In this document: positions 10,538 through 51,694 of the stretch, in pieces
Numbering within the stretch: position 1 is the first letter of the stretch
Layout: the number at the start of each line of letters is the position of its first letter
Origin: a virus
Taxonomy: Duplodnaviria > Caudoviricetes
Length of the DNA stretch: 54,493 nt
Virus record (IMG/VR): IMGVR_UViG_3300048996_000054
Span: 1-54,493 of that record
Strand: one strand, 5' to 3'
Program-made: the position numbers and the translations under genes
Notes under the pieces: model-generated
Told to the model about the DNA's origin: nothing
The model's input: only the letters and a program-made list of their open reading frames with translations
The model's database searches: none

Positions 10538-10545
10538 GGTTTCTT

Positions 10546-10851: not shown

Positions 10852-11018
10852 GCGAACCACCATCCGACGATGCCGGCCCAGACGGATACGACGAACACCA
10901 GGGCAGCGAAGCCGGCGGGGCTTTGCACGAACTTGGCTGACGCCGCCTTGCAGCACGTGCAGCTCTTGTAATTGCCAGTCGCCAGATAGGCGCGGTTGCA
11001 GCAGGTGGGGGAGGTCAT
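10848..11018 (-). CDS. small Cys-rich membrane protein (56 aa)
   Basis: Hand translation MTSPTCCNRAYLATGNYKSCTCCKAASAKFVQSPAGFAALVFVVSVWAGIVGWWFA; ATGA overlaps on both sides. Confidence 0.6.
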   Translation of the reverse strand: MTSPTCCNRAYLATGNYKSCTCCKAASAKFVQSPAGFAALVFVVSVWAGIVGWWFA

Positions 11019-11383
11019 GTGGCGCTCCCGGTAGCCTTGGCGATGGCGGCGCGGTAACGCTCGGCGTCGGCCGGCGTGATCTGGTCGAACCAGTGGGCCG
11101 CGTGCTTGAGCTCGCGCACCAGCTCGTTGATCACCTCATCGCGCTCGTCGAAGGGCGCCAACTCGTGCGCCGGGACGTGCTGCCGGTAAATGCGCAGCTC
11201 GTGATCGTCGGCGTTGATCGGCGGGATGACGAGGGCGTCGTCGAGGACGATGTCGGCGTGCAGCACGTCCTCCTCGATGCAGAGGCCGCGCACCACACCC
11301 GTGACGCGCTTGCCGTGGAAGTCGTGATGCCGAACGCGCTGGCCGATGCGCAGCGAGATTTCGACGCCGGCGGCCGCGCTCAT
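11015..11383 (-). CDS. hypothetical protein
   Basis: MSAAAGVEISLRIGQRVRH...AAIAKATG; ATGA-coupled. Confidence 0.6.
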   Translation of the reverse strand: MSAAAGVEISLRIGQRVRHHDFHGKRVTGVVRGLCIEEDVLHADIVLDDALVIPPINADDHELRIYRQHVPAHELAPFDERDEVINELVRELKHAAHWFDQITPADAERYRAAIAKATGSAT

Positions 11384-30660: not shown

Positions 30661-31260
30661 ATGAACGTGCTGTCCATCTCCCAAGCCAAAGCCGAAGGGC
30701 TCACCCGGTATTTCACCGGGAAGCCTTGCGGCAAAGGCCATGTCTCCGAGCGCATGGTGTCGAACAAGTGCTGCGTGACTTGCCTTCGGGCAAAGCGCAA
30801 GGTACAGCGCCAGGCCAACCCGGAGCGGGAGGCGGCAGTGCGCCGTGCATGGGTTGCCTCGAATCCCGAGCACCACAAAGCCCTCAAGGCTGCATGGAAC
30901 AAGGCCGATCCCGAAGGTCAGGCCAAGCGTTCACGCGCTTGGTACCTCCGCAACAAGGAACAGGCCGACACCGCATCCAAGCGGTGGGTCGAGGAAAACC
31001 GTGGTCGTGCAAACGCGAGGGTCGTCCGGTATCACGCCGAACGACTCCAGCGGACGCCGGCCTGGGCTGACATCGGCCTGATCGACGACATCTACTCGCT
31101 CGCCTCGGTCCTTCGGGTCCATGGCGGTGTGCAGGTGGACGTCGACCATGAAGTCCCACTGCGGGGCCGCAAGGTGAGCGGGCTGCACACGCACCACAAC
31201 CTACGTCTTCTCGACTCGACGCAAAACAAGTCGAAGAGCAACCATTTCAACGTTTCATAG
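30661..31260 (+). CDS. free-standing HNH (homing) endonuclease
   Basis: YFTGKPC..GH..ER......CVTC; RTPAWAD; VDHEVPLRG..VSGLH...NL.......N.SKSN. Confidence 0.85.
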   Translation: MNVLSISQAKAEGLTRYFTGKPCGKGHVSERMVSNKCCVTCLRAKRKVQRQANPEREAAVRRAWVASNPEHHKALKAAWNKADPEGQAKRSRAWYLRNKEQADTASKRWVEENRGRANARVVRYHAERLQRTPAWADIGLIDDIYSLASVLRVHGGVQVDVDHEVPLRGRKVSGLHTHHNLRLLDSTQNKSKSNHFNVS

Positions 31261-32042: not shown

Positions 32043-32318
32043 ATGGCCACGATCCCGACCATCGCTGACGTGCTCGACGGCTTGGTTGCCGGGCGGTACA
32101 CGCGCGCGCAGGCGCTGGTCTGGATCGACCTGCTGATTGGCGAGGCCTGCGACGCCTCCTGTGACCGGGACGCCGCGGCGCGCGCAGCAATGCAGACCCT
32201 ACTGGCCGACCGAAAGTTTGTGCAGGACGCCATCAACGCCAGGCAGAACCCGATGGATGCGGTCGCCTGCGAAGCCTACCGGGCCGCCGATTCGATGAAA
32301 AAAGCGAGGAGCGCATGA
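32043..32318 (+). CDS. hypothetical protein
   Basis: RD..AA.AMQ.LL...AY..AD.M.KAR phage motif. Confidence 0.55.
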   Translation: MATIPTIADVLDGLVAGRYTRAQALVWIDLLIGEACDASCDRDAAARAAMQTLLADRKFVQDAINARQNPMDAVACEAYRAADSMKKARSA

Positions 32319-32956
32319 CCACCACCAGCCGCCTGACCCTCTACAACGGCGCCCTGCGTGAACTGGGTGAGCGTCAGCTGGCCTCCATCACGGAGAACCG
32401 GGAGTCCCGCCGCATGCTCGACGCGGCTTGGGACGACAACGCCGTGCAGCGTGCGCTCGAGGCCGGCCAGTGGCTCTTTGCCTGCCGCTCCATGCAGTAC
32501 GACTACAGCCCTTCGGTGGAGCCGCCCTTCGGTTTCCAGCGGGCCTTCAACAAGCCGGACGACTTCGTGCGGACCCTGGCCATCTGCTCGGACGCCTACT
32601 TTCGGACCCCCCTCACGGCCCGGCAGGTGTCCGACGAGGCCGGCTACTGGTTCTCCGACCTGGACACCATCTACGTGAAGTACGTGTCCAACGCTGCGGA
32701 ATACGGCGGCGCCATGGCTCGCTGGCCGCAGTCGTTCGTCAAGTACCTCGAGGCCCTGCTGGCGCGCGACATCGCCATGCCCCTGAAGCAGAACCGCCAG
32801 GCCATGCTCGACATGGAGCAGCTGATGGAAAAGCGGCTCACCGAGGCCAAGTCGCAAAACGCGATGGCCGACGGCTCCAAGCAGCTGCCGGTGGGTAGCT
32901 GGGTCGGAGCGCGCTTCGGCGGCCTCTGGGGCAGCCGCAACAGGAACGGCCAGTGA
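32315..32956 (+). CDS. tail tubular protein A (adaptor, T7 gp11-like)
   Basis: LYNGALRELGE..LAS, W.FA, F.KP.DFVR, F...LEA.LA..IA. Confidence 0.85.
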   Translation: MTTTSRLTLYNGALRELGERQLASITENRESRRMLDAAWDDNAVQRALEAGQWLFACRSMQYDYSPSVEPPFGFQRAFNKPDDFVRTLAICSDAYFRTPLTARQVSDEAGYWFSDLDTIYVKYVSNAAEYGGAMARWPQSFVKYLEALLARDIAMPLKQNRQAMLDMEQLMEKRLTEAKSQNAMADGSKQLPVGSWVGARFGGLWGSRNRNGQ

Positions 32957-35957: not shown

Positions 35958-36455
35958 ATGGCAGTCGCTCCCATAATGCTCATGATGATGGCCAGCGCAG
36001 CGGTCACCATCATCGGCCAGCAGCAGGCCGCGAAGGCGGAACAGGTCGGGCTGGACTACCAAGCCAAGCAGATGGAGGTCAAGGCCGGCCAGGACCGCGC
36101 GACCGCGCAGCGCCAGGGCATGGAGGAGCATCGCCAAGCCCGGCTTGCCAACTCCCGCGTGCAGGCGCTGGCAGGCGGAGGCGGCGCGGACGAGAGCGTG
36201 ATGAACCTCACGGCCAACATCGCGGGCGAAGGGGAATACAACGCGCTGACGTCACTGTACGAGGGTGAGCAGAGTGCGCTCGGCCGCGAGATGCAGGGCG
36301 CAGGCCTTCGCATGGAGGGCAAGGCCAAGCGCACCGCGGCGAACTGGAAGTCGGCCAGCACCGTGATGAGCACCGCATCGTCCATGTTCGGCAGCTACGG
36401 CAGCGGGGGCTTTGGAGCTTCTGCTGGCGGTGGCGCATTCGGAAAGGGCGGCTGA
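35958..36455 (+). CDS. internal virion / ejection protein (gp14-like)
   Basis: Hydrophobic N-terminus, Ala/Gln-rich helix, Gly-rich tail. Confidence 0.7.
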   Translation: MAVAPIMLMMMASAAVTIIGQQQAAKAEQVGLDYQAKQMEVKAGQDRATAQRQGMEEHRQARLANSRVQALAGGGGADESVMNLTANIAGEGEYNALTSLYEGEQSALGREMQGAGLRMEGKAKRTAANWKSASTVMSTASSMFGSYGSGGFGASAGGGAFGKGG

Positions 36456-38587
36456 TGGCCACCATGCCGCAACTCGGCGCCCGCCGGACGCCCAAGGACA
36501 CCCGGCAGATTGCCACGGTGGACCTGTCGGCGGAAGGCCGCGCCATCGAAGGCTTCGGCAACACCGCGCTGAAGATCTCCGAGGACCTGATGAAGCAGCA
36601 GCAGCAGGAGGCCGACGCCGCTTCCGTGTTCGCTGCCCGCCGCAAGCTCGACGACTGGGAACGCTCCAACCTGTACGACTCGCAGAACGGCGCCGTGGCC
36701 AAGCTTGGGCGCGACTCCTTCGATCTGCCGACCACCATTCCCAAGTCTTTCGACGAGTTCGCCGGAAAGCTGGGCGATGGCATCACCTCGCCGCGGGCGC
36801 GCAATGCGGTGCAGGAGATGATCACCAGCCGGCGAGACCAGGCGCTGAACTTCGTGGACCGCCACACCTTCCAGCAGCGGCAGGTGTTCGAAGAGGGGCA
36901 GTTCAAGGCGGACATCGATTCCAGCCTGAACCGGGCGGCGTTGCTGATGGACGCGGGCGACAGCGCCACGTCGGCGGCCGAGGTGAAGCTGGCACAGACG
37001 CGCGCGGTGGGGTTCCTGAAGGCGCGCGGCAAGTCGGAAGAAGAGATTGCGGCGGCCACCCGCGACATCTCGAGCAAGGCCGCCATCAGCACGATCAACA
37101 TGCTGCTGGACAAGGACAAGCCCACCGAGGCAGAGAAGTACCTGCGGGAGAACGCCGGCAGCATGAAGACCGAGGACATGCTGCGTGCACAGGCTGCGGT
37201 CGGCAAGGCGGTCGATGCGCGGCAGGGCCTGGTGGTGGCGCAGACGGTGGTGGACAAGGTGCTCAAGCCCGCGGTGGCGCCTACCGACTTCGGACGCCTG
37301 CATGCCCTGGCCGGCGAGCCGGCGCCGGAGCGCCTGACCGAACTGGTGAAGATGGCGGAGTCCGGCGGCAAGCGGTACGCCAAGGACGGCGTGATCCTCA
37401 CCAGCACCAAGGGCGCCAAGGGCGAGATGCAGGTGCTCGACTCGACGAACAAGGACCCGGGCTACGGCGTGGTGCCGGCGCGCGACAACAGCCCGGACGA
37501 GCGCGCGCGCGTGGGGCGCGACTACCTGCAGGCGATGGTGCGCGAGTTCAAGGGTGACGTGCCGAAGGCCCTGGCCGCCTATAACGCTGGTCCCGGGCGG
37601 GTGCAGGACGCCATCAAGGCCGGCGGCGACAACTGGCTGGAGAAGTTGCCGGACGAGACCAAGGCCTACGTGGCGAAGATCACCAAGCAGTTCGGCGAGG
37701 GCGCCGGTGCGCCGACGCTGCCGACGCTGCAGTCGCTGCACGAGCAGGTGCGCAAAACCATCCCGCCCGACCAGCCGCAGCGCCGCAAGATCGCACTGGA
37801 CGAGGTCACCCGCCAGTACGAGGAAACGCTCAAGGCCAAGAAGCAGGGCGAGGACGAAAACATCGCCCGCGGCTACCAGTGGCTGGACCAGAACGGTGGG
37901 CGCTTCAGCCAGATGCCGGCGAACCTGCGCGCCAACATCCCAGCCAAGGACTACGACAACATGCGCAACTACGGGGTGCGCGTGGCCAAGGGCGACGACA
38001 TCACCGACCCGGTGGTGTTCCAGAAGATGGCGACGGACGACAAGTGGCTGGCCGGCCTGACGGATGCGCAGTTCTACATGCACAGCCGGCAGCTGTCGCA
38101 GTCCGACCAGCAGCAGATGGCGCTGCGCCGCGGCAAGCTCCTGAACAAGGACATCCCGGCCGGCCAGAAGCCCACGGACCTCGACGCCAACGGCGTGAAC
38201 GCCATCTTGAACAACCGCCTGCAGCAAATCGGCCTGGACCCGACCCCGAAGGACTCCAGTTCGGAAGCGCAGCGCGTGGGCGCCATCCGCAAATTCGTCT
38301 GGGATGGGGTGCTGCAGGCGCAGCAGGCCGCCGGCAAGAAGTTCAATGACGCCGAGATGAGCACGCAGATCGACAAGATGTTCGCCACCAACGTCACGTT
38401 TCAGAAGACCTTCCTGGGCTTCGCCACAGGCTCTAAGGAGTCCATGCGGCTGCTCGGTATGTCGGTGGGCGACATCCCGGGCGACGTCAAGACGGCGCTG
38501 GAGAAGGACTTCGTCGCCAACGGCATCAGCAAGCCGACCGACGCGGACTTGCTGGGCGCGTACTTCCAGCTGAGGGCCCGCAAGTGA
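36455..38587 (+). CDS. internal virion protein with lytic transglycosylase (SLT) domain
   Basis: AESGG...S.KGAKGEMQV...T; ALAAYNAGPGRV; ETKAYV. Confidence 0.88.
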   Translation: MATMPQLGARRTPKDTRQIATVDLSAEGRAIEGFGNTALKISEDLMKQQQQEADAASVFAARRKLDDWERSNLYDSQNGAVAKLGRDSFDLPTTIPKSFDEFAGKLGDGITSPRARNAVQEMITSRRDQALNFVDRHTFQQRQVFEEGQFKADIDSSLNRAALLMDAGDSATSAAEVKLAQTRAVGFLKARGKSEEEIAAATRDISSKAAISTINMLLDKDKPTEAEKYLRENAGSMKTEDMLRAQAAVGKAVDARQGLVVAQTVVDKVLKPAVAPTDFGRLHALAGEPAPERLTELVKMAESGGKRYAKDGVILTSTKGAKGEMQVLDSTNKDPGYGVVPARDNSPDERARVGRDYLQAMVREFKGDVPKALAAYNAGPGRVQDAIKAGGDNWLEKLPDETKAYVAKITKQFGEGAGAPTLPTLQSLHEQVRKTIPPDQPQRRKIALDEVTRQYEETLKAKKQGEDENIARGYQWLDQNGGRFSQMPANLRANIPAKDYDNMRNYGVRVAKGDDITDPVVFQKMATDDKWLAGLTDAQFYMHSRQLSQSDQQQMALRRGKLLNKDIPAGQKPTDLDANGVNAILNNRLQQIGLDPTPKDSSSEAQRVGAIRKFVWDGVLQAQQAAGKKFNDAEMSTQIDKMFATNVTFQKTFLGFATGSKESMRLLGMSVGDIPGDVKTALEKDFVANGISKPTDADLLGAYFQLRARK

Positions 38588-40473
38588 ACGAGGAACTGGA
38601 CACCTCCGCCGCGGTTGCCAGCTACCTGGGCGCGCGTAAGCCCGAGCAGGTGCTGCACACCAGCCTCACGCTGGCCGGCGCGGCCAACCCGGACGCAGAG
38701 GCGGAGTTTCAGCGCCTGTCCAAGGCCGCCGGCCTGCCGATCGACAGCGTGCGCGACAACGCGCCAGCCGTGAAGCAGCGCCTGGCCATGCCGGACACCG
38801 CAGACCTGGCCGCCAAGTTCCCGAGCACGACCCAGTACCTGTCCAACATCGAGAACGCGCGGATTGCGCACGACGACGTCGGGAGCCTGATCGCCATCGA
38901 GAAGGGCATTCGGTCCTTCATGAACGGCGGCGGCATGAAGAAGGAAGCGGGGCAGGCCCTCAGCTTCCTGGGCGAAGGCGTCAAGCAGATCGGTCTTGGG
39001 GCGACGGTAGGCCTGGGCGCTGGCATGTTCGACCTCGCGGCCGTCCCGATGGACATCCTCTCGACGGCGACCAGGGGCATGCTGCCGCAGGACATCCCGG
39101 GCATGCTGGCGGCCGACTACCGCGAGCGGGCCAAGCGCGCGCGCGCGGCGATGGACGAGGTGTCCCACAAGCCGGAAGGCAACGTCGCCAAGGGCTTCCA
39201 ATCCGGCTTCCGTTCGGCCGGTCAGAACCTTGCCCTGCTGCCTCTGGGCATCGCCGCCGGCACCGAAGCCATGCTGGCCGGAATGGTGGGCATGGTCGGT
39301 TCGCAGGCCTATGGCGATGCACGCGAGAAGGGCATGGCCCCGCTGGGCGCACTTACCTACGCCATCCCGCAGTCGGTCTTCGAATACGCCTTCGAAAAGC
39401 TACCCGCCAGCCGCTTGCTGGAGGACATCGCCAAGCACTCCAGCTTGGGCACCATCGTCGCTCGGCAGCTCGGGCCGGAAGTGCTGGGCGAGCAGGCCAC
39501 CACGGTGCTCCAGGACCTGAACGAGTGGGTGCGGCTGAACCCTCAGAAGACTGCACGCGAGTTCCTGGAGGAGCGACCTGGTGCTGCGATGCAGACGCTG
39601 GTGGCAACGCTGGTCGGGGTGGGCGTGCAGGGTGGCGCCGTGCGGGGTGTGCAGAAGGTCCTGGGCGGCGCTGCCGAACGCGAGGCCAGCGCCCAGCGCG
39701 CCGAAGCCTCTGCCACCCGCGCGCAGGAGTTCGCCGGCCTGGTGGAGCAGTCCAAGCTGCGCGAGCGCGATCCGCAGGCCTTCAAGCAGTTCGTCGACCA
39801 GGTTGCTGAGTCCGGCGACGCGCCGACCGAGTTCTTCATCGACGCCGAGCAGCTGGCCAACAGCCTGAACCAGTCGGCCATCTCGCTTGAGGAGTTGCGC
39901 GCGGTGGCGCCTCAGGTGGCCGCGCAACTCGAGGCTGCCCAGCACGTTCCGGGCGCCGACATCCGGGTGCCGGTGGCGGAGTTCGCCGCGGTGCCGTCAG
40001 ACATCACCACCACCCTGGTCGATCACCTGCGAGAAGCGCCGGACGCCATGAGCCGTTCCGAGGCGCAGGCCTTCATCAAGGAGCAGGGCGACCGGATCAA
40101 GCAGGACGTGGAATCCGCGCTGGGCGACGAGACGAAGCGGGCGGCGACCAAGGCGGCCACGGATGCCGTGCGCCAGCACTTCGAGGACCAGCTGAACGCC
40201 GTGGGCAAGTTCCGCCCCGAGGTGAACAAGGCCTACGCCACCCTGATGGGCAGCTTCTACGGCACGCAGGCGGAGCGCGCTGGCATGACGGCCGATGAGT
40301 TCCTGCAGCGCTACCAGCTGAAGGTGGCCAAGAAGGACGGCGCCGGTTCGCAGCGGCTGGAGCAGGCCGCTCCTCCAGCCAAGCCTGACCCGCAAAAGCA
40401 GCGGGCCATGATCGACCTGCGCAAGCGCCACAAGGTGCTGGAGTCGCTGCGCACCTGCCTGGGGGCCGCATGA
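38584..40473 (+). CDS. large ejection protein, N-terminal part
   Basis: 629 aa; Gly/Ala-rich hydrophobic core, SKLRERDPQAF motif; ends LRKRHKVLESLRTCLGAA. Confidence 0.75.
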   Translation: MNEELDTSAAVASYLGARKPEQVLHTSLTLAGAANPDAEAEFQRLSKAAGLPIDSVRDNAPAVKQRLAMPDTADLAAKFPSTTQYLSNIENARIAHDDVGSLIAIEKGIRSFMNGGGMKKEAGQALSFLGEGVKQIGLGATVGLGAGMFDLAAVPMDILSTATRGMLPQDIPGMLAADYRERAKRARAAMDEVSHKPEGNVAKGFQSGFRSAGQNLALLPLGIAAGTEAMLAGMVGMVGSQAYGDAREKGMAPLGALTYAIPQSVFEYAFEKLPASRLLEDIAKHSSLGTIVARQLGPEVLGEQATTVLQDLNEWVRLNPQKTAREFLEERPGAAMQTLVATLVGVGVQGGAVRGVQKVLGGAAEREASAQRAEASATRAQEFAGLVEQSKLRERDPQAFKQFVDQVAESGDAPTEFFIDAEQLANSLNQSAISLEELRAVAPQVAAQLEAAQHVPGADIRVPVAEFAAVPSDITTTLVDHLREAPDAMSRSEAQAFIKEQGDRIKQDVESALGDETKRAATKAATDAVRQHFEDQLNAVGKFRPEVNKAYATLMGSFYGTQAERAGMTADEFLQRYQLKVAKKDGAGSQRLEQAAPPAKPDPQKQRAMIDLRKRHKVLESLRTCLGAA

Positions 40474-40796
40474 CACTGGAAGAACAGGTAACCGCGCTGC
40501 GCATGCAGGTCGACGAGATCGGCCAGCAATACGCCGAGGTGCTCGAGCGTATGGAGCAGATGCAGGCCGCCATGGCCGAGCAATTCCAGCAGGCACTGAC
40601 CGCCATGCGGGCGCAGCCGGGGCCGCAGGTCACGGTCACGCCGGAATTCAACGTGCCGCAGGCGATGGCGCCGGTGGTGCAGGTCGCCGCACCGGTGATC
40701 GAGATGCCGGACAACAAGGGCGCCACATGGGAGATCGCCATGCCAGGATTCAATGGTGGCCCGCCCCGGGTGGCATTCGTGAAGCGGACGAACTGA
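40470..40796 (+). CDS. coiled-coil plus Pro/Val-rich protein (possible fibre adaptor)
   Basis: Heptad N-terminus; PQVTVTPEFNVP..APVVQVAAPV. Confidence 0.65.
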   Translation: MTLEEQVTALRMQVDEIGQQYAEVLERMEQMQAAMAEQFQQALTAMRAQPGPQVTVTPEFNVPQAMAPVVQVAAPVIEMPDNKGATWEIAMPGFNGGPPRVAFVKRTN

Positions 40797-40797
40797 G

Positions 40798-43700
40798 ATG
40801 GCAACCATCACCAGCGCGGCCAGCGGCCTGGCCAGTGCAACCGGAACTTGGGTTGGCGGTGTCGTGCCTGTCGAAGGAGACCGCGTCATCATCGCCGCCG
40901 GTCACACAGTCACCATCGACGGAACGTTCACCTGGGGCGATGACACGGTAGGAACGAACGGCGGCAACCCGGCTGCGGCCGGCGGAGTCTGCGCCATCAA
41001 CATCATCGGCACGCTCAAGGCGTCGCGCACGGTCAACTCGTCCCTTACGGTGAAGGGCGGCATCCTCACCGGCTACGCCACCCAGGGCATGGACTACGGC
41101 ACCGAGGCCGACCCGATCCCAGACGGCATCACCGCGGAACTGGTGCTGAACAAGGCCACTACGCCTGCAGTGCGACTTGCGCTGGTGCAGCGGGTCGGCG
41201 CATCTGGCGCGGGCAACTACATACTGTGGACCTTCTGTGGCGCGGACGTGCGCACGCGCGGCGTCACGCTCGCCGCCGACGCCGCCGCCGGGGCCACCAG
41301 CCTGACCCTCACCAGCAGCTCGCATGGATGGAAGGTGGGCGACACCATCATCCTGCCCAACACCACGGACGCGAGTGCCGTCGATCAGTGCGAGGAACGG
41401 GTACTCACCAGTGTCGCGGGCGCGACGATCGGCTGGACCACTGGACTAACCTACGCTCACAAGGCCGGCGCGCCAGCGGTGAACCTCACGAACAACGTGG
41501 TTGTGCGCTCGTTCAATGAGGTGGCCAACCAAACCGCTCGGTTGGATTTCGCTTACCCCAACAGCGGGGGCAACAACGCCACCCTGGGTGTCAGGCTGAT
41601 TGCGTCGAACGCCACGTTCAAGAATTTGGGAGGCACGAGCGCCAACGCCGGGCCGTTCTTTAGCTCTGGTGGCGCCACCTCGGCGTTCACCCAAGAGGCA
41701 CGCTTCAACAAGTGCGTGTTCTACAACAGCGTGCAGGCCAACGCGGTGTTCGCATTCGCCGCCCCAGTGCCGATCCAGTACACCGACTGCGCATTGGTCG
41801 GCCCGACTGCCAGCACATTCCAGTGGGGTGCAGGTGTCACCGTCACCATTCAGGGTGGGTATCACTTCGCTGGAGTGCTACTCACTTCCGGCACCGCCGG
41901 ATGCAGCGGCGACAGCCTGTTCGTGTGCATGCGCAACCCGAACGGCCCAACGGCGTCGGGTGCTGCTGGCATGACGATCACCAACAGCACGTTCTGCGGG
42001 CGCGCAACTGAGTTCGGCCAGCGCAGTCTGAGTTCGGAACAGAACACCGTTCTCAACAACTGCGACCTTGGCTCGACGTTCGGGTGGTCCAGAGGCTCGG
42101 CCACCGACAATTTCTACCGCTTCGGCGCGGACACCGCATTCCAGCAATGCAAGCACACGCTGACCGACTGCTTGGTGCATTCGGCCCTCAGCACGCCATA
42201 CTCCGTCGAGTCCACCATCGCCATGCAAGGCGATGGCTTCGCGCTGACATTCATCAACAAAAATCGGGACGTCACAGCCCAGGAGATTTACACCCGGCGC
42301 GCAGCCTTCAAGCGCGACAACAGCGTGCGCACCCGCAGCAACGCGGCCATCAGCATCAAGCCCTACGCGGTTAGTGTCCCGGCCACACGAACGCTAAGCA
42401 TTGCCTGCCCCGCAGGCCAGAGCATCACGGTTGTGGGCTACGTGCGCGTCGACTCGTCCTTCTACAACGGTGGGTCGTGGACGCCGCCGACTGTGAGCCT
42501 TTCCGGCCTGACCGCGGTCACGCAGACGTTCACGGCCAGCGCCGCCGCCAATGGCGCGTGGGAAAAGTACACGCTGACCATCACCAACGGCACTGCCAAT
42601 GACGGCAACTTCACCCTGACTTACACAGCGACGGCAGCAGCAGTGACCACAGGCACGGCCTACTTCGACGGCGTGCCGGACTCGCCATTCGTCACGGCCT
42701 GCCGCCACTACGGCTTCACCTTCGATGAGGCCAACCCGGTGCGCGCGGTGAACCCGTACACCGTGGTGGCCGAAGCGACTGCCGCGGCCTACACGGGGGC
42801 GACCTTCAACACAGGCACCAAGCGCTTGACGTTCGGCGCCGGCACCATCGACACGTTCGCCAAGCTCTACGACTACTCGCAGGCATGGGGCGTGACGGCG
42901 ATCAGCGGAGCCACCTACACCACCATGCCGTGGACCCGCGCAGGCGGTCTGCTGTCCCTCTCCACCGGCTGGACAGTGGTGGACCCGGCCATCACCGGCA
43001 TGACCTGGGGCGGAGGCATCATCGAGTTCAACAGCATCGGCGCGAAGGGCGGCAGCTACGACGCCTGCACCATCAACTTCAAGGCGGCCGGCGCCTTCAA
43101 CATGGCCGACGCCATCCTCACCAGCTCGGTGAACCTGGTGAACACCTCCGGCGGCGCGGTCACGGTGCAGTTGTCTGCCGATGCCAGCTACACCAACACC
43201 GGCCCGAACATCACCGTGGTACTGCCGCAGGTGACCCAGAGCGTGACCATCTCCGGAGTGGTCGTGGGCTCGCGCGTGCAGGTGTACGACCTGACCAACA
43301 GCGTCGAACTGCTGAACACGGTGGCCGTGGCAACGACAGTCGACTGGACGGATTCGGTGGCAGCGACGGCCGACCGCGACATCCGGGTCCGCATTGCCTA
43401 TGCTTCCGGCCCCACCGGCTACGAGTTTCTGGAGGCCGAGGTCGGTACCTGTGGCACGACTGACACGACTGCCGCGGTGACCTATCTCGCCAGCCAGCAG
43501 GCCGATGCGGTCTACAACACCAACGCCATCGACGGTTCCACAGTGACCGGCATCACCATCGACGATTCCACCGACCGGGTGAGCATCAACATCGGCGGTG
43601 GCAGCGTGACCTGGCCGCAGATCTACGCCTATCAGTGCCACTGGAACCAGACCGAGGATGGCATCCGAGACGATGCGGCGATCATCACGGCGCCCGACAC

Positions 43701-44034
43701 GGCCAACTACCTGCTGGTCGGTTTCAAGGTCAAGAACACCAGCGCCACCCCGCTGACGATCACCGGCGGGTACGGACGCGATGCCACGACCGGCACCGTG
43801 CTGGACGTGATGGACACCACCGGAGGCTTCATCTTCCCGGCGCCGGATCACGTGGTTCCGTTCTCGGTCGGCTCCGGTCTGACGGCAGGTGAGCAGGCGC
43901 AACTCGCCACCGCCGCCACGGTCGCCGGCCTGCTGTCGTTCACCGGTGGTGCTGTGGACGCGAACATAGCGATGGTCAAGGGTCAGGAGGTCGGCGGCAG
44001 CGGCACCAGCGACGACCCGTGGGGACCTGGCTGA
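40798..44034 (+). CDS. 1078-aa G8 / beta-helix / CBM-like fibre or adhesin
   Basis: TWVGGVVP..GD.VIIAAGHTVTID (G8-like); GWKVGDTIIL...EER....V.G..I.....LTYAH; WEKYTLT...YFDG; ends GSGTSDDPWGP. Confidence 0.7.
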   Translation: MATITSAASGLASATGTWVGGVVPVEGDRVIIAAGHTVTIDGTFTWGDDTVGTNGGNPAAAGGVCAINIIGTLKASRTVNSSLTVKGGILTGYATQGMDYGTEADPIPDGITAELVLNKATTPAVRLALVQRVGASGAGNYILWTFCGADVRTRGVTLAADAAAGATSLTLTSSSHGWKVGDTIILPNTTDASAVDQCEERVLTSVAGATIGWTTGLTYAHKAGAPAVNLTNNVVVRSFNEVANQTARLDFAYPNSGGNNATLGVRLIASNATFKNLGGTSANAGPFFSSGGATSAFTQEARFNKCVFYNSVQANAVFAFAAPVPIQYTDCALVGPTASTFQWGAGVTVTIQGGYHFAGVLLTSGTAGCSGDSLFVCMRNPNGPTASGAAGMTITNSTFCGRATEFGQRSLSSEQNTVLNNCDLGSTFGWSRGSATDNFYRFGADTAFQQCKHTLTDCLVHSALSTPYSVESTIAMQGDGFALTFINKNRDVTAQEIYTRRAAFKRDNSVRTRSNAAISIKPYAVSVPATRTLSIACPAGQSITVVGYVRVDSSFYNGGSWTPPTVSLSGLTAVTQTFTASAAANGAWEKYTLTITNGTANDGNFTLTYTATAAAVTTGTAYFDGVPDSPFVTACRHYGFTFDEANPVRAVNPYTVVAEATAAAYTGATFNTGTKRLTFGAGTIDTFAKLYDYSQAWGVTAISGATYTTMPWTRAGGLLSLSTGWTVVDPAITGMTWGGGIIEFNSIGAKGGSYDACTINFKAAGAFNMADAILTSSVNLVNTSGGAVTVQLSADASYTNTGPNITVVLPQVTQSVTISGVVVGSRVQVYDLTNSVELLNTVAVATTVDWTDSVAATADRDIRVRIAYASGPTGYEFLEAEVGTCGTTDTTAAVTYLASQQADAVYNTNAIDGSTVTGITIDDSTDRVSINIGGGSVTWPQIYAYQCHWNQTEDGIRDDAAIITAPDTANYLLVGFKVKNTSATPLTITGGYGRDATTGTVLDVMDTTGGFIFPAPDHVVPFSVGSGLTAGEQAQLATAATVAGLLSFTGGAVDANIAMVKGQEVGGSGTSDDPWGPG

Positions 44035-44225
44035 TGGCATCGGCCTGGGGTCAGGCGTGGGGTGCGGCCTGGGGCTCCAGCTGGGGCTCCGTCGCCACAG
44101 AAGACTCCGACGACGACATTACGTGGAGCTGGGCGCGCAAGCGGCGCGAGCACGAAGAAGCCGACGAGGAACTGCTGACGCTGGCCGTGGGCCTGCTCAT
44201 ATCCGGGGAATTTGAATGTCACTGA
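44034..44225 (+). CDS. small Trp-Gly repeat protein
   Basis: MASAWGQAWGAAWGSSWG...EEADEELL; TGATG-coupled. Confidence 0.65.
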   Translation: MASAWGQAWGAAWGSSWGSVATEDSDDDITWSWARKRREHEEADEELLTLAVGLLISGEFECH

Positions 44226-47200
44226 TCAGCTGTCTGCGCAAAGCCAAGAGCGTCATCCACGCCGAGGACAAGGCGGCCATCCTTGCGCTGGCGACGGAGT
44301 TCCGTGGCAAAGGGGAGAACGCCAGCGGCGCCGCGCAAAAGGCCATCGAGCAGCACATGGCCGCGGTGCAGGCCCAGCTGGAGGACGCGGAATCCTCGCT
44401 CCTGCCGGGCCTGCAGAAGACCATCGCCGCGCAGGCTGTCGAAGCGCTCACCCGCGCCGGCCTGGGCAACCTGAAGCTGGTGGAATCGGTCGACCAGCTC
44501 CCGGAGTCCGCGCAGCGCAAGATCAAGTCCGAGGGCCAAGCCGGCACGCGCGGCATGTACGACCCGGAGACGGACACCACGTACCTGGTGCGGCAGAACA
44601 TCGCCAGCCTGGATGAAGCCTTCTGGGTGGGCCTGCATGAGGCCTTTCACCGAGGACTGCGCAAGACCGTAGGGGCGGAGGTGGAGCCGCTGCTGCAAGC
44701 CATCCACGACGGCAACCCGCGCGTGCAGGCGCTGGCGGCGCGGTACATGGAGCAGCAGAACATCCCGCTGGCCGAAGCCATCGAGGAAGTGCTGGCGGAC
44801 ATGGCGGGGCAGGGCGAGGTGGGGAACCTCAAGGGCTGGGACCAGCTGCTCGCCTTCCTGAAGGACGCAATCACCAAGCTCGCCGCCGCCGCTGGGGTGA
44901 AGCTGGAAGTCACCGACCAGATGGTGACGGACCTGGTGGCTGGAATGCGCCGGGCTGGAATGCAGGACCATTCCGGTGACGTCACCAACATGGTCAGCCA
45001 AGGTCCCAAGGGCACCCTCTCCTTCGGCAACGACATCACCGCCGTCCCTTCGATCATCGCCCTGATGGAAGGCGCCGACCTGTCGACCTTTTTGCACGAG
45101 GGCGGGCATTTCTTCCTCGAGGTGCAGGCCGACCTTGCCGCCCGAATCCAGCGCCGCACCTTCAACGAGCAGTACACCGGTGAGCCGGTCAGCGACTCCG
45201 AGCGCCAGATCGTCAAGGACATGGAGGCCATCCTCGGCTGGTTTGGCATCACCGGCACGCCGGAGCAATCGGCTCTGGACACCTGGGCCAGCATGACGCT
45301 GGAGGAAAAGCGCGAGCATCACGAGAAGTGGGCCCGGGGCTTCGAGCGCTACGCCATGGAAGGCAAGGCGCCGAGCCAGGACCTGCAGGGCCTGTTCTCC
45401 AAGTTCCGCGCGTGGCTGGTGTCGGTCTACAAGGCGCTGGCCGGGCTGAACGTCGAACTGACCCCGGAAGTGCGGCAGGTGATGGACCGCATGCTCGCCA
45501 GCGACGAAGCCATTGCCGAAGCGCAGATGGCCCGGAACATGGGCCCGCTGTTCGAGAGCCCGGAAGCGGCCGGCATGACGCCGGTGCAGTACCAGGAGTA
45601 CCAGGCGCTGGGCGAGCGGCAGACGGCCGAGGCCGCGGCGGAACTGGACGCCCGGCTGCTCAAGGACATGAAGTGGCTGTCCAAGGCGCGCGACAGGGCG
45701 ATGAAGGCCAAGCAGGAGGAGGCGGAGGATCTGCGCCGCGAGGTGCGGATGGAGGTCACCACCGATGTGATGGCGCGGCCGGTCTACCGAGCCTGGGCGT
45801 TTCTGACCAGCAAGGCCGAATACTTCGTCGAGCCTGGCCTTCAAATGGCCGAGACGGTCGACGCCACCCGGCAATCGGGCAAGCTGCGCACCAGCTACCT
45901 GAAGGAAAGCCACCCCGAGCAGTGGAAGACTCTGTCCGAGCGCCGCATGACCAGCGAGGAGCGGGGCCTGGACCCGGACTACGTGGCCGACGTGATCGGC
46001 TTCAGCTCCGGCGACGAGATGGTGCAGGCGCTGGCTTCCGCGCCAGCGCCGAAGCAGCTCATCGAGGAGATGGTCGATCAGCAGATGCTGGAGCGCTACG
46101 GCGACATCACCAGCGACGAGGCCCTGCAGCGCGCGGCCGACGAGGCGGTGCACAACGAGGTCCGCGCCCGGGTGGTTGCCACGGAACTGAAGGCGCTGGA
46201 GAAGGCGGGCAAGGTGCGGACGGGCCCGCGCAGCACGGTCGACGCCATGGCACGGGCGGCCAAGGAATACGCCTACCAGGTGATCGCCGGCCAGCGCGTG
46301 CGCGATCTTCGCCCGAGCCAGTATTCGGCGGCGCAGGCGCGCTCGGCCCGGCTCGCGCAGCAGGCACTGGGCAAGAGCACCGAAGAAGCGGCGATGCACA
46401 AGCGCAACGAGCTGATCAACGGCTACGCGGCCAAGGCTGCCTACGACGCGCAGGAAGAGGTCCGGTCGCTGCAGAAGTACATGCGCAAGTTCGACAAGCG
46501 CATAGACGGCATCGACCCCGGGTACCAGGACCAGATCGAGCAGCTGCTGGAGGGTTACGACTTCAAGCCAGCCAGCCTGAAGGCGATCGACAAGCGCAAG
46601 GCGTTTGCCGAGTGGTACGCCGAGCACAAGAACGACGACAACCCGCCGGTGGTGCCGCAGGAACTGATCGACGGCATGGGCCGCAAGTCGTTCAAGAACA
46701 TGACGGTGGAGGAATTGCGGGGCCTGCGCGACACCGTCAAGCAGATCGAGCACCAGGGCCGGCTGAAGAAGAAGCTGCTGCTTGCGCGCGATGCCAGGGA
46801 CTTCGAAGCCATCGCCAAGGAGATCGCCGCCTCCATCGTGGAGCACGGAGGCGAAGCGCGCGAGGTGAAGCTGGAGGGCGAGAACGCGGTGGTGGACTGG
46901 TTCGCCGGGGTTGCAGCCTCGCATCGCAAGCTGGCCAGCCTGTTCCGCCAGATGGACGGCAACAAGGACGCCGGGCCTCTATGGGAGCACATCGGCCGGG
47001 CCATGAACGAGCGCGGCACCATGGAAGACGTGATGGTGGAGCGCGCCACCATGCAGCTGCGCGAGCTCTACGCACCTCTGCTGAAGATGCGCGGCGGCAT
47101 CTCCGGGTTCCGCTCCAAGGTCTTTATCCCCGAGATCAACGCCAGCCTCACGCGCGGCGGCCGACTGGCGGTGGCGCTGAACTGGGGCAATGAGGCGAAC

Positions 47201-48820
47201 CGCCAGCGCGTGATGGACGGCGACAAATGGTCCGTCGGCCAGGTGCAGGCGATCCTGAAGACGCTCTCGCGCCAGGAGCTCGACTTCGTCAACAAGGTGT
47301 GGGAGTTCCTCGACTCCTACTGGCCGGAGGTGGCCGCCAAGGAAAAGCGCCTGACCGGCGTGGAGCCTGAGAAGGTCGAAGCGGTCCCGTTCAATCTCTC
47401 CCTGCCCGACGGCACCGAGGTGGCGATGCGCGGCGGCTACTACCCGCTGAAGTACGACACCGACCGCAGCGACCGGGCCGAGCAGCAGGAAGCCGCGCAG
47501 GCAGCCAAGGAGATGATGCAGGGCGTCTTCACCAAGGCCACCACCCGCCGCGGCCATACCAAGGAACGGCTGGAGGATGTCAAGCGCGCGGTGCGCAAAG
47601 ACCTGAACGTGATAACCCAACACGTGACGCAGGTGGTGCACGACCTGACCTGGCACGAGTGGCTGATCGACACCAACAAGCTGCTGGACGACGACGGCAT
47701 CAAGGAGGCCATCCGCGCGCACTACGGCCCCAAGGTCCTGAAGACCATCCGCGACGACGTCCTGGGCATCGCCACGGCCGACGTCGTGCCGCAGACGGAC
47801 ATCGACAAGGCGCTGCTGATGCTGCGATCCAACGTGAGCCGCGCGACCATGGGCGCGTCCCTGACGACCGCCTTCCTGCAGCCGTTCGGCCTCACGCAAT
47901 CCATCGTTCGCATCGGCGGCCGGCACGTGCTGCGCGGTATGGCGCGGTGGGGAGGCGACGCGGCCAGGATGGAAAGCACCCTGTCCTGGATTCACGAACG
48001 CTCGGACTTCATGCGCCTTCGGGCCAAGACCTTCAATCGGGAACTGCGGGAGATCCAAGGCTCCGTGGCCGGCAAGTCAGCCACCATGCGGGTGGTCGAC
48101 GCAGGCCTCTTCGTGATGATGCAGAAGATGCAGATGGTGGCGGACGTGCCGACCTGGCTGGGCCAGTACGAGAAGTCGCAGGCGGAAGGGCTGGACGAGG
48201 CCGCCTCCGTCGCCATGGCCGACCGGGCGGTGCTCGAGGCCCAGGGCGGCGGCCAGACCAAGGACCTGGCAGAAGTGCAGCGCAAGCACCCCATGCTGAC
48301 CCAGTTCTATTCGTACTTCAGCACTACCCTGAACCTCGCCGCGGAAAGCACGGCGGCCACCAACTTCAAGCAGCCGGCCGCGGTGGCCGGCTGGCTGGGC
48401 GACATGGCGCTGCTGATGGTGGTGCCGGCCATCCTGCCGTCCCTCATCCTGTTTTCGTTGCGGGGCGGGGACGGCGATGACGACAAAGGCCTGTTGCGCC
48501 GGATGCTGGAGTGGCAGGTGAGCTACCTCCTGGGCACCGTGGTCTTGGCGCGCGAACTGTCCGGCGCGGTCTCCGGCTTCGACTATGCCGGCCCGCCGGT
48601 GGGCCGCCTGGCGACCGACATCACGAAGGCTGGCAAGCAGACCGCGCAGGGCGAAGTCGACGAGCCGCTGGTGCTGGCGTACATCAACCTGTTGGGGTCA
48701 GGCCTCGGCATCCCCACGGTACAGGCCCTGCGCTCCTACAAGGGCTGGAAGGCCTGGAGCGAGGGCAAGGAAGGGGCTGGGCCGCAATCCGTCTTGTTCG
48801 GGCCGCCCCCCAAGGATTAA
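44216..48820 (+). CDS. large polyvalent ejection protein, C-terminal part, with two zincin-like metallopeptidase motifs
   Basis: 1534 aa; RGMYDP...LHEAFH...EEVLA and ADLSTFLHEGGH...HEKWARGFERY; GGYYPLKYD; hydrophobic C-terminal region. Confidence 0.8.
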   Translation: MSLISCLRKAKSVIHAEDKAAILALATEFRGKGENASGAAQKAIEQHMAAVQAQLEDAESSLLPGLQKTIAAQAVEALTRAGLGNLKLVESVDQLPESAQRKIKSEGQAGTRGMYDPETDTTYLVRQNIASLDEAFWVGLHEAFHRGLRKTVGAEVEPLLQAIHDGNPRVQALAARYMEQQNIPLAEAIEEVLADMAGQGEVGNLKGWDQLLAFLKDAITKLAAAAGVKLEVTDQMVTDLVAGMRRAGMQDHSGDVTNMVSQGPKGTLSFGNDITAVPSIIALMEGADLSTFLHEGGHFFLEVQADLAARIQRRTFNEQYTGEPVSDSERQIVKDMEAILGWFGITGTPEQSALDTWASMTLEEKREHHEKWARGFERYAMEGKAPSQDLQGLFSKFRAWLVSVYKALAGLNVELTPEVRQVMDRMLASDEAIAEAQMARNMGPLFESPEAAGMTPVQYQEYQALGERQTAEAAAELDARLLKDMKWLSKARDRAMKAKQEEAEDLRREVRMEVTTDVMARPVYRAWAFLTSKAEYFVEPGLQMAETVDATRQSGKLRTSYLKESHPEQWKTLSERRMTSEERGLDPDYVADVIGFSSGDEMVQALASAPAPKQLIEEMVDQQMLERYGDITSDEALQRAADEAVHNEVRARVVATELKALEKAGKVRTGPRSTVDAMARAAKEYAYQVIAGQRVRDLRPSQYSAAQARSARLAQQALGKSTEEAAMHKRNELINGYAAKAAYDAQEEVRSLQKYMRKFDKRIDGIDPGYQDQIEQLLEGYDFKPASLKAIDKRKAFAEWYAEHKNDDNPPVVPQELIDGMGRKSFKNMTVEELRGLRDTVKQIEHQGRLKKKLLLARDARDFEAIAKEIAASIVEHGGEAREVKLEGENAVVDWFAGVAASHRKLASLFRQMDGNKDAGPLWEHIGRAMNERGTMEDVMVERATMQLRELYAPLLKMRGGISGFRSKVFIPEINASLTRGGRLAVALNWGNEANRQRVMDGDKWSVGQVQAILKTLSRQELDFVNKVWEFLDSYWPEVAAKEKRLTGVEPEKVEAVPFNLSLPDGTEVAMRGGYYPLKYDTDRSDRAEQQEAAQAAKEMMQGVFTKATTRRGHTKERLEDVKRAVRKDLNVITQHVTQVVHDLTWHEWLIDTNKLLDDDGIKEAIRAHYGPKVLKTIRDDVLGIATADVVPQTDIDKALLMLRSNVSRATMGASLTTAFLQPFGLTQSIVRIGGRHVLRGMARWGGDAARMESTLSWIHERSDFMRLRAKTFNRELREIQGSVAGKSATMRVVDAGLFVMMQKMQMVADVPTWLGQYEKSQAEGLDEAASVAMADRAVLEAQGGGQTKDLAEVQRKHPMLTQFYSYFSTTLNLAAESTAATNFKQPAAVAGWLGDMALLMVVPAILPSLILFSLRGGDGDDDKGLLRRMLEWQVSYLLGTVVLARELSGAVSGFDYAGPPVGRLATDITKAGKQTAQGEVDEPLVLAYINLLGSGLGIPTVQALRSYKGWKAWSEGKEGAGPQSVLFGPPPKD

Positions 48821-48980: not shown

Positions 48981-49082
48981 GGCTTGGGATAGGCTGGCCG
49001 GCCGACAAGGGGTGAACGCACCGCCCTTTCCCAGAGTCTTCGTGCGGCCTTGCGCCACTCGGCGCGTGTAAAGGCAAACCCC

Positions 49083-49517
49083 ATGTTGGAAATTCTTCTG
49101 GACCCAGAGGACGCGCACCTGTGGCCGCTTCCTTGGTACATCAACGGCGGCTACATCCGGCGCACCTACTACGACCAAGACGGTAGTCACCGCCACGAGT
49201 TTTTGCATCGCGCGGTTCTTTCCGTGCCGGTAGGCCACGTTATCGACCACATCAACGGCAACACGTTGGACAACAGGCGCTGCAACTTGCGCGTGTGCAC
49301 TCCGGGCGAAAACGCAAAGAACCGCGGTCCGTACAAGAACAACACAACCCGGTTCAAAGGCGTTTGTTACGTGGCGAGGCTGGGAAAGTTCCGGGCTTCT
49401 ATTGGATGCGACGGCATCAAGCATCGCCTTGGGTGGTTCGACACCGCGGAAGCAGCTGCTGCTGCCTACAACAAAGCTGCGCTCGACCTTCACGGCGAGT
49501 TTGCGCGCTTGAACTGA
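49083..49517 (+). CDS. HNH-AP2 homing endonuclease
   Basis: LHR.V....IDHINGNTLDNRRCNLR.CT..EN..N; FKGV...F.ASI...LG.FDTAE.AA.AYN.AA..LHGEFA. Confidence 0.92.
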   Translation: MLEILLDPEDAHLWPLPWYINGGYIRRTYYDQDGSHRHEFLHRAVLSVPVGHVIDHINGNTLDNRRCNLRVCTPGENAKNRGPYKNNTTRFKGVCYVARLGKFRASIGCDGIKHRLGWFDTAEAAAAAYNKAALDLHGEFARLN

Positions 49518-49555: not shown

Positions 49556-51694
49556 ATGCCTGCAACCGCTACTGACCGGCTCTACGGGTTAACCACTAGT
49601 ACAGCAATAAAACCCCCATGCTTGGTCGCCACCACCGCCAACATCGCTTTGACCGGTCTCCAGACCATCGACGGCGTGGTGCTGGCGGCCAACGACCGGG
49701 TGCTGGTGAAGAACCAGACCAACACCACAACGAACGGCATCTACGAGGCCAACACCTCCGGGTGGAGCCGCGCGCCTGACTTCGATGGGGTGCGCGACGC
49801 GGTGAGCGGCACGCTGGTGATCGTGCGTAACGGCACTGACAACGGTAACACCGTCTGGGAACTGACCACGGCCAACCCGGTGGCGATCGGCACGGACGCG
49901 CTCACCTTCACCAAGGCGCTGCTGGACGACACGGCCACTGCTGTCTTCATCCAAAACGGGACCGGCGCAGTCGAACAAACCGCTCAGGACAAGCTGCGCG
50001 ACTGGGGCACGGCGGAGGGGTACGGCGCACTGGGCGACGGCGCGACCGACGACACTGCCGCCATCATCAAGTGCCTTAACGCCAAGGGCGCCTGCTACCT
50101 GATCCCCGGCAAGACCTACGTTTGCGACAACGTAATCCTTCCCGCCGGGGCCTGCATCTTCAGCGTGGGACGAGCCGCCACCCTCAAGCAGAAGTTCGCG
50201 GTCGCCAGCACTGGCATGCTGTACGCAAACAGCGGCTCGGCCAGCGCCACGCTCGACAACATCAGCATCTTCGGCGTCACGCTGGAGGGTCAGGTTGCGA
50301 CTCAGGGATTCGCCGAGTTCGTGCACCTGATTTCGGTCAACGGCGTGCGCAACTTCAGGCTCGATGACTGCCTGCTCAAGGGGTTCCGTGGCGACGCGCT
50401 CTACCTGGGCTCTGGCATCGTCGCGGGAGATGAGCGGCACAACTACAACGTGCGCGTCACGCGCACCGACTTCGATGGCGTGAACAACGACAACCGCAAC
50501 GCGGTTAGCGTGATTGACGTTGACGGTCTGACCATCAAAGGCTGTGGTTTCAAGAACTGCACGCGCCCGAACATGCCGGGCCCCATTGACCTGGAACCGG
50601 ACGCCCTGCCGTTCCATGTGATCCGAAACGTCCGCATCGCCAACAACACAGGTGACAACATCGGCGGCAACGTGGGATTCGTTTCAGTGCTGGTGCCGGC
50701 GGCAGTCACTGCCGCTCCAAGGAACATCCGTGTTCTCAACAACACGCTCACCAATTACGTCGGCACCGGCGCATTCTTCACCTTCACCGCGAACCGCGCC
50801 CCCACGGCAACCAGCGAAAACAACGATGTTCAGGTGATCGGAAACCACGGCAAGACGGGCGGCCTGCCTCTGCAGATCTTTGACGGCAAGGGCATCGTCA
50901 CCCGAGACAACACATGGGAAGATTTCACCGCTTCGACCTTGATCGGCTACACGGGAGCGGCGCAGAAGGTCCTCGACCTGGAGGTGGACGACACCTACAT
51001 TCGCTGCGGCTCCAATAGTGGCAGCGGAGTGGTGGTGTATCAACTGGATCACGCCAAGATCAAAGGCAAGTTGGTCGATTGCGGAAAAGGAGTGGCAGGC
51101 AGCGCCAATGGCATCGACTTCAACACCGGAACCTCGTCGTACATCGACATTGAGGAGTTGGAGATTTCCTCGCCGACTGGCAAGACGCTGGTGGGCATCC
51201 AGAAAGAGGCCGGGCACACGTTCGCAGCTTCCACCAACAGGTATGTAAACAACAACCTGAATGGTCTCAGCAACGCTTTCCAGGCCGACTACTCCGACGA
51301 GCTGGAAACTGCGTGGCTACCTATCGTCACGGGGTCATCTTCGGCCGGCGCAGGTGTCTACACCGCCGGCCAGTACGGCCGGCTTCGGCGCATGGGCAAG
51401 AAAGCGAGCATTCGGGGCAAGGTGCAGGTGAGTGCCGGCCATACCGGCACCGGCATGATCCAAATTCCGCTCCCAATTGCCGCCAAGGCAGCCAGCAACA
51501 ACGAGGAGACGCCTGTTTCCCTGCTGGTCACTGGAGTGGCGACGACCGGCGGCCATGTAGGTCTCATCAACCCTGCGGTCGGGTCGACAGGGGCAATCCG
51601 CTGCTACTACACAGGCACTGGGACCATGGGGCAGACAGCGATCCCTGCCGGCGCGTTCACCGTCTACTTCAGTGCCGAGTACGAGACCGCCTAA
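49556..51694 (+). CDS. tailspike / polysaccharide depolymerase (beta-helix)
   Basis: ATTANIALTGLQTIDGV...DRVLVKNQT...NGIY...WSRAPD N-terminal domain; YGALGDGATDDTAAI pectate-lyase-like start; IDLEPD. Confidence 0.85.
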   Translation: MPATATDRLYGLTTSTAIKPPCLVATTANIALTGLQTIDGVVLAANDRVLVKNQTNTTTNGIYEANTSGWSRAPDFDGVRDAVSGTLVIVRNGTDNGNTVWELTTANPVAIGTDALTFTKALLDDTATAVFIQNGTGAVEQTAQDKLRDWGTAEGYGALGDGATDDTAAIIKCLNAKGACYLIPGKTYVCDNVILPAGACIFSVGRAATLKQKFAVASTGMLYANSGSASATLDNISIFGVTLEGQVATQGFAEFVHLISVNGVRNFRLDDCLLKGFRGDALYLGSGIVAGDERHNYNVRVTRTDFDGVNNDNRNAVSVIDVDGLTIKGCGFKNCTRPNMPGPIDLEPDALPFHVIRNVRIANNTGDNIGGNVGFVSVLVPAAVTAAPRNIRVLNNTLTNYVGTGAFFTFTANRAPTATSENNDVQVIGNHGKTGGLPLQIFDGKGIVTRDNTWEDFTASTLIGYTGAAQKVLDLEVDDTYIRCGSNSGSGVVVYQLDHAKIKGKLVDCGKGVAGSANGIDFNTGTSSYIDIEELEISSPTGKTLVGIQKEAGHTFAASTNRYVNNNLNGLSNAFQADYSDELETAWLPIVTGSSSAGAGVYTAGQYGRLRRMGKKASIRGKVQVSAGHTGTGMIQIPLPIAAKAASNNEETPVSLLVTGVATTGGHVGLINPAVGSTGAIRCYYTGTGTMGQTAIPAGAFTVYFSAEYETA

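Follow-up and report, generated by a model that had tools for sequence, protein, structure and literature searches.

A tailspike-like gene cassette within a split Bbp10-type polyvalent protein gene of a BPP-1-like podophage, bordered by recurring cysteine-bearing end modules

The stretch of DNA analysed here (the window) comprises the 54,493 nucleotides (nt) of IMG/VR record IMGVR_UViG_3300048996_000054 (Duplodnaviria; Caudoviricetes), a metagenome-derived virus record rated as complete. Based on Pfam and PHROG matches, the gene order around the site described below is that of a BPP-1/T7-like podophage, and the window is a complete 54.5-kb BPP-1-like podophage. In this phage, the gene for a giant polyvalent virion protein of the Bbp10 type is present as two genes with three others between them. 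The five open reading frames (ORFs) all lie on the + strand and encode, in order, 629, 108, 1078, 68 or 63 (depending on the start codon) and 1534 amino acids (aa) (Table 1). Successive genes are linked by overlapping stops and starts, namely GCATGA at 40470, TGAGATG at 40795, TGATG at 44032 and ATGTCACTGA at 44216–44225, and all five are translationally coupled. The five frames are all open, with a third-position GC content of 0.84–0.90 in the three large ones.

Proteins of the Bbp10 type are internal virion proteins that are ejected. The 629-aa and 1534-aa genes can be assigned as the two halves of one such protein. Both match the same 2231-position profile, phrog_9880, in a collinear fashion and without overlap, the 629-aa protein covering positions 262–673 and the 1534-aa protein positions 939–2215 (E 0). 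In the 629-aa protein, the N-terminal LPD22 domain (PF18834) scores 75 bits against a cutoff of 28.6. Residues 9–601 of this protein align with residues 28–615 of Bbp10 at 37% identity, and residues 209–1529 of the 1534-aa protein align with Bbp10 residues 716–2047 at 42% identity. In BPP-1, the counterpart bbp10 is a single coding sequence (2052 aa) flanked by the SLT gene bbp11 and the fibre gene bbp9. A 710-aa SLT gene occupies the same place as bbp11 in the window, directly upstream of the 629-aa gene and overlapping its start. The split is thus more than chance, since the halves fall on collinear parts of one profile and their end motifs, described below, recur in many unrelated contigs.

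As the first-pass annotation of this DNA had stated, homologues run continuously through the break. Bbp10 and gp037c of Caulobacter phage BL94, a 6.1-kb coding sequence, are single ORFs, and the unsplit relatives form one chain of about 2000–2600 aa in BPP-1, in Caulobacter phages and in most of the closest database relatives. Among the 119 best database relatives of the 1534-aa protein, 115, with lengths of 1436–2677 aa, carry LPD22 in the same chain; of those without it, P0044 and P0060 open with a close relative of the first 55 residues of the 1534-aa protein, and P0100 is a fragment. The possibility that homologues are always two genes does not apply, with nine of the ten viral loci of relatives that were fetched being unsplit. 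The C-half body gave tblastn matches in 51 phage records; tblastn of both halves against a phage collection of 50,697 records returned unsplit genes only, and no match to cultured phages was obtained with megablast or blastn, either for the region or for the junction. The window protein therefore shares with Bbp10 and its relatives the gene position from SLT to fibre gene, the N-terminal LPD22, a collinear C-terminal body of about 1270 aa and a variable cargo site in between, whereas Bbp10 and nearly all relatives are one chain and here two genes lie 3.7 kb apart. On these features, it is classified as a split member of the Bbp10-type LPD22 family.

The limits of the insert were set by the closest unsplit relative, P0024 (2520 aa). 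Its residues 1–594 align without gaps to residues 1–594 of the 629-aa protein at 70% identity, ending in ...QRLEQ, and six residues further along P0024, at its residue 602, the match resumes with residue 71 of the 1534-aa protein (AAQAVE...). Compared with this empty site, the last 35 residues of the N half, the three middle genes and the first 70 residues of the C half are extra. By this alignment, the inserted block spans nt 40366–44425, about 4.06 kb, at the variable cargo site, where relatives carry domains such as ART-PolyVal, GNAT and LPD37. The first-pass annotation had placed the break in this same site and proposed that the block supplied a stop, a new start and Cys-bearing ends, which agrees with their absence from P0024 and their recurrence with similar cassettes elsewhere. 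Its estimate of about 4.6 kb, reaching 44990, is too long by about 560 nt; the 3' edge lies near 44425, because P0024 also carries residues 71–257 of the 1534-aa protein. The block opens with the 35-aa tail and its stop, continues with the genes for a small helical, a tailspike-like and a small AWG-repeat protein, and closes with a new start and the 70-aa head.

These two end modules, hereafter tail and head, do not occur in Bbp10, P0024 or the unsplit locus L004. The 629-aa protein ends in ...SQRLEQAAPPAKPDPQKQRAMIDLRKRHKVLESLRTCLGAA and the 1534-aa protein starts with MSLISCLRKAK, exactly as first quoted. The tail follows the motif LRKRxxVLxSLxxC[LM] with 1–4 residues after the Cys, in summary form ..LRKRxSVLxSLxxCLG and then the stop, while the head is a conserved N-terminal module with the consensus MSLTxCLKKAG.... 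The Cys is invariant in 10/10 aligned tails and 23/23 aligned heads. Of 17 further short LPD22 proteins recovered with the 629-aa protein, 10 close with this tail, in the form LRKRxxVLxxLxxC[LM] plus 1–4 residues, some of them having an ART domain before it; the remaining seven end differently and may be fragments. Neither module matches Pfam or PHROGs, and neither motif was found internally in the unsplit members of a set of 142 proteins.

Tail and head co-occur at 13 junctions in 12 loci (the window, L013, L063, L064, L065, L068, L073 with two junctions, L074, L075, L076, L078 and L082), 0.55–7.4 kb apart. The full layout is found again in L013, where the tail-bearing N half is followed by a helical protein of 92 aa, a fibre of 519 aa with the end ...GTGTEADPWVPA, an AWG-repeat protein and a C half starting with MSLTKCVRKAG. 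Most host proteins at the junctions belong to a different polyvalent class, with InPase, ResIII, ART-PolyVal, MuF_C, LPD37 and LPD38 domains, so that by domain content the modules occur in two unrelated classes of polyvalent proteins. Viral and metagenome contigs scanned with head alignments also have heads at the start of other giant proteins, the alignment used for the metagenome scan missing window-type heads (MSLIS...) by design. One head match in a scan of genome contigs was discarded as spurious, since it spans 11 residues and then runs into a stop. In L073, head and tail sit at opposite ends of a 404-aa middle piece (10001–11215), which contains a HESLGH motif; the second junction of this locus contains only genes of 57 and 128 aa before the next head, MSLSKCLSVAG (11765 onward).

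A profile of the 23 heads, searched against 1.84 billion representatives, identified 534 protein clusters at E<=0.001 and 205 at E<=1e-10. In the best 150 of the 534 matches, the alignment starts at residue 1–5 in 148 and the Cys is at residue 6 or 7 in 144, and eight of these proteins have a tail at the other end. Polyvalent-protein domains are present in 21 of the 22 long matches scanned. From these comparisons, tail, head and the two small flanking proteins form a portable conserved set with different spike or fibre genes in between. LPD22 and LPD38 were defined by Iyer et al. (2017; PMC5512222), and its main text makes no mention of 'split', 'tail fiber', 'adjacent genes' or 'BPP-1'. A search of the literature on LPD22 and on split polyvalent proteins with tail fibres in phages yielded no description of this layout. 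The arrangement is real, conserved and apparently undescribed.

The first-pass annotation described the middle genes as a three-gene fibre cassette. Three coupled genes are indeed present and the large one is tailspike-like; for this 1078-aa protein 'tailspike' fits the predicted structure better than 'fibre'. Its AlphaFold2 model, based on an alignment of 50 relatives, has a mean predicted local distance difference test (pLDDT) score of 86.5. Foldseek returned 39 PDB matches at E<=0.001 with tailspike depolymerases at the top (best E 8.3e-10). Those sharing the predicted fold include S2-4 of Klebsiella phage K64-1 (9k4a), gp61 of Pseudomonas phage phi297 (4ru5) and gp49 of LKA1 (4ru4), with E 8e-10 to 1e-7 and probability 1.0. 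The 1078-aa protein differs from them in its identity of about 10%, its low whole-chain template-modelling (TM) scores and its lack of a recognisable N-terminal adaptor domain. Unlike them, it also lies within the reading unit of another gene, and its C-terminal motif is always followed by an AWG-repeat gene. Pfam and PHROG searches assigned it no family and no sequence relative was found in PDB; among 100 relatives, some carry PF10162 (G8) or PF13229 (Beta_helix) in precomputed annotation. Since the phage retains a normal tail-fibre gene downstream of the 1534-aa gene (49556–51694), the tailspike-like gene is an addition.

The smaller cassette genes are less easily named. No Pfam or PHROG family was found for the 108-aa protein, Pfam results for its homologues being sub-threshold noise, and PHROG searches with 14 cassette proteins of other loci gave no match. 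ESM Atlas searches with the 108-aa and 1078-aa proteins scored <=0.80 and provide leads only. The 63-aa protein carries AWGxxWG repeats in its N-terminal part, then an acidic stretch, and at the C-terminus a hydrophobic helix with the end ...LLTLAVGLLISGEFECH; it directly follows the spike C-terminus ...G.GT..DPWGP. In viral contigs, the gene upstream of an AWG-repeat protein ends in ...G.GT..DP[WF][GN]P in 24/24 distinct cases. These AWG-repeat proteins start with MASAWGxxWGxxWGxxWG, the widespread pair occurs in viral contigs L014–L061 (e.g., L027, 4345–5222), and no family name was found for them. The Cys in the ...ECH end of the 63-aa protein was considered as a third partner and, as a conserved feature, rejected, its codon overlapping the next ATG (GAATGTCACTGA) and the proteins of other loci ending in ...GELE or ...GALDE.

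Table 1. Features at and upstream of the split gene in the window
Feature	Position (nt)	Strand	Basis
Tail tubular proteins	32315–32956 and 32953–35601		
Small internal virion protein	35958–36455		
710-aa internal virion protein, SLT transglycosylase domain, Bbp11-like	36455–38587	+	Pfam SLT, E 4.5e-12; phrog_10475, E 2.3e-83
629-aa gene (N half)	38584–40473	+	
N-half body (aa 1–594), LPD22 domain at aa 27–114	38584–40365	+	PF18834, E 5.7e-21
Tail, 35 extra residues (AAPPAK...IDLRKRHKVLESLRTCLGAA) and stop	40366–40473	+	Not in unsplit relatives
Cassette gene 1, 108 aa: helical N-terminus, Pro/Val-rich middle, small C-terminal domain	40470–40796	+	Without known family
Cassette gene 2, 1078 aa (P0004): tailspike/depolymerase-like beta-helix, conserved C-terminal ...GSGTSDDPWGPG	40798–44034	+	AlphaFold2 and Foldseek
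Cassette gene 3, 63 aa from ATG at 44034 (ORF opens with GTG at 44019)	44034–44225	+	AWG-repeat family
1534-aa gene (C half)	44216–48820	+	
Head, first about 70 residues of the C half (MSLISCLRKAK...), Cys at residue 6	44216–44425	+	Not in unsplit relatives
Ordinary variable cargo domain (aa 71–257, contains ...LHEAFHRG...)	44426–44986	+	Counterpart in P0024, residues 602–780
Conserved C-terminal body (aa 258–1534), start ...GTLSFGNDITAVPSIIALMEGADLSTFLHEGGH	44987–48820	+	phrog_9880 939–2215; Bbp10 alignment; tblastn

Split and unsplit forms are closely related. Split P0044 and unsplit P0397 are 95% identical over 1284 residues, with ART-type sequence in P0397 where P0044 has the head. In a FastTree of a 450-residue block, built from those 66 of about 123 candidate rows that fit the anchor pattern (the rest being left out), each of the four split rows has unsplit rows as its sister, with starred support, which requires four changes. 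These are read as exchanges at the cargo site and not as a count of insertions, because the gene is mosaic. Judging from the alignments, the split form has been gained or lost recently and repeatedly between near-identical phages.

What the two ends do is best explained, with a probability of roughly 0.6, by tail and head being two parts of one small helical domain that is cut in a loop. After translation they would re-associate non-covalently, and the halves would then be packaged and ejected together like the unsplit protein. The invariant Cys of each side would lie near each other, and a disulfide (or metal) staple could form outside the cell, although such a staple is speculation. The conserved ends might also double as homology arms, through which different spike genes are swapped in the slot. 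Pairing is supported by the ends being specific to splits, by their co-occurrence, and by their conservation as protein while codons and overlap geometry vary. In addition, P0322 is a natural single chain with a tail, a 4-residue linker and a head; the model of a 100-aa stretch of it has four helices, a mean pLDDT of 89 and a predicted TM score of 0.76, with heads only as extra alignment rows, and its tail helix scores about 90 without alignment rows covering it. A Foldseek search with this four-helix model found no PDB match at E<=0.001. A broader version, in which the Cys-tipped split connector is a general socket for gene blocks, a multi-chain hub tethers the spike to the ejection protein, and a disulfide in the released virion is reduced on entry, so that the halves are freed in the host cytoplasm, is doubtful.

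Several points weigh against the preferred explanation as a whole. P0322 is a singleton from one 15-kb contig that could be a sequencing or gene-calling artefact, and the high pLDDT of a lone predicted helix is weak evidence. As for a staple, two Cys per pair are too few for the usual zinc site, and the cytoplasm is reducing, so a disulfide would form only after release. The conserved ends of both small cassette proteins adjoin tail and head, and the real partners may be those. In L069, there is no tail within 10 kb upstream of the head, while P0122 (1416 aa), the last of the four relatives without LPD22, also lacks the head and has an unrelated domain of about 170 aa at its start, which may reflect a different split or a mis-called start. 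Around the block, a search for flanking DNA repeats or a target-site duplication gave only short, low-identity matches typical of GC-rich DNA, and Pfam and PHROG searches of its three proteins found no mobility gene or nuclease family. Finally, the tree is a FastTree of a partial set of rows from a gene known to be mosaic.

The split giant might instead be a mount for the spike, in which the 108-aa protein offers its helical N-terminus for binding by the tail, and the AWG protein its hydrophobic C-terminal helix for binding by the head. This is unlikely, but it is a live explanation that does not exclude docking of tail and head. The 108-aa homologue begins at or beside the tail stop in 9/9 loci examined, and at 22/23 heads the product of the abutting gene, as judged by eye, closes with an acidic-then-hydrophobic helix (...GALE/GALD-like), the exception being the second junction of L073. 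Moreover, no N-terminal virion-anchor domain can be recognised in the spike, which is conserved in its C-terminus, beside the AWG protein. However, that second L073 junction keeps tail and head around two small unrelated genes without a spike. Most AWG pairs lie far from polyvalent genes, several of them beside head-tail connector-like genes, and polyvalent proteins of this gene position are expected, as in T7-like cores, inside the capsid and away from spikes. It is rather improbable that there is no rejoining at the protein level at all, the halves acting independently and the ends persisting as recombination linkers and translational-coupling sequences. Such a role would suit the stop/start overlaps at all junctions, the cassette content that differs between conserved ends and the exchange of split and unsplit forms at 95% identity; Iyer et al. 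(2017; PMC5512222) also propose that polyvalent proteins are processed into separate units by metallopeptidase domains. It would not suit the retention of Cys and the hydrophobic pattern while codons and stop/start geometry differ (4-nt or 10-nt overlaps, gaps). The two 18-nt SLxxCL stretches of the window match at only 11/18 bases, and the head is a module of 55–60 residues that is predicted to be folded, longer than a coupling signal needs.

A Cys on either side of the break could also suggest that one chain is made after all, by split-intein-like splicing or by read-through or frameshifting, and Dassa et al. (2009; PMC2677866) describe fractured genes in which split inteins surround an inserted gene. 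Such rejoining is very improbable here: intein halves would need far more than the 1–4 residues that follow the tail Cys and the five that precede the head Cys. Pfam finds no intein/Hint family in either half, the head Cys is not preceded by His-Asn, and the halves are separated by about 3.7 kb in which three real genes occupy three frames. A split intein was accordingly rejected as a candidate, as the defining features of one are missing. Although the window comes from a metagenome-derived record, there is next to no chance that an assembly chimera or a broken, dying gene accounts for the layout, which recurs in 11 other independent loci, with five open frames of high third-position GC in the window and ends conserved across the family.

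The closest precedent is the split of nrdA by mobE in Aeromonas phage Aeh1. According to Crona et al. (2010; PMC3045599), this essential gene is fragmented by inserted DNA (nrdA-a / mobE / nrdA-b), and assembly of the active protein, without RNA or protein splicing, depends on new C- and N-terminal tails acquired with the insertion. Both cases share a gene that is interrupted relative to unsplit homologues and new terminal tails that are not in those homologues. However, the Aeh1 insert is a homing endonuclease with one-off tails, whereas the window insert is a tailspike cassette without any nuclease family by Pfam or PHROG; the only HNH gene near the block lies outside it (49050–49517). Unlike those of Aeh1, the window ends also belong to a conserved family that is reused, with 534 clusters and several junctions within a single protein, and the Cys is invariant on both sides. 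The fractured genes of PMC2677866, in which split inteins flank a free-standing endonuclease gene, are similar in the whole-gene interruption, the conserved end modules and the junction Cys. They differ from the window in that its ends are far too short for intein halves, no Hint/intein family is found and no ligation is expected.

Elsewhere in the window, the upstream structural genes comprise a terminase, a portal/adaptor and a major head protein, followed by the tail tubular proteins (Pfam/PHROG). After the major head protein gene, a 199-aa ORF (30661–31260, +) matches endonuclease VII-type and unknown PHROGs (phrog_1035, E 1e-11) and may be another selfish nuclease within the structural module. 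The HNH endonuclease gene mentioned above (+; phrog_99, E 3.5e-39) separates the C half from the tail-fibre gene and lies where GC content is lower, about 0.58–0.61 vs 0.65–0.69 around it. In the 1534-aa protein, two HExxH-type motifs, LHEAFH and LHEGGH, were seen by eye at residues of about 141–146 and 293–298, each preceded by a similar G..(F/Y)DP...L stretch; Pfam gives no match, and from its sequence the pair looks like two related metallopeptidase-like modules. In L068, two further pieces of the giant protein, the first of which ends in ...GVLEVVCD, are separated by an ORF whose N-terminus looks GIY-YIG-like by eye (5402–6118, +); this may be a second type of split within that gene.

The evidence presented here supports the split, the portability of its ends and the cassette with its spike, while the rejoining mechanism is a plausible proposal. 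If the ends do rejoin the halves, they would form a widespread natural protein connector, found in hundreds of clusters, that offsets gene fragmentation without introns or inteins; comparable rejoining has so far been shown experimentally in one phage enzyme, the NrdA of Aeh1. Short self-assembling helical pairs with a possible redox staple would be of practical interest as protein-engineering tags, and annotators would gain a rule for spotting split polyvalent proteins. For the phages themselves, such a connector would account for the carriage and exchange of host-range genes, tailspikes among them, within a gene that is essential and co-expressed.

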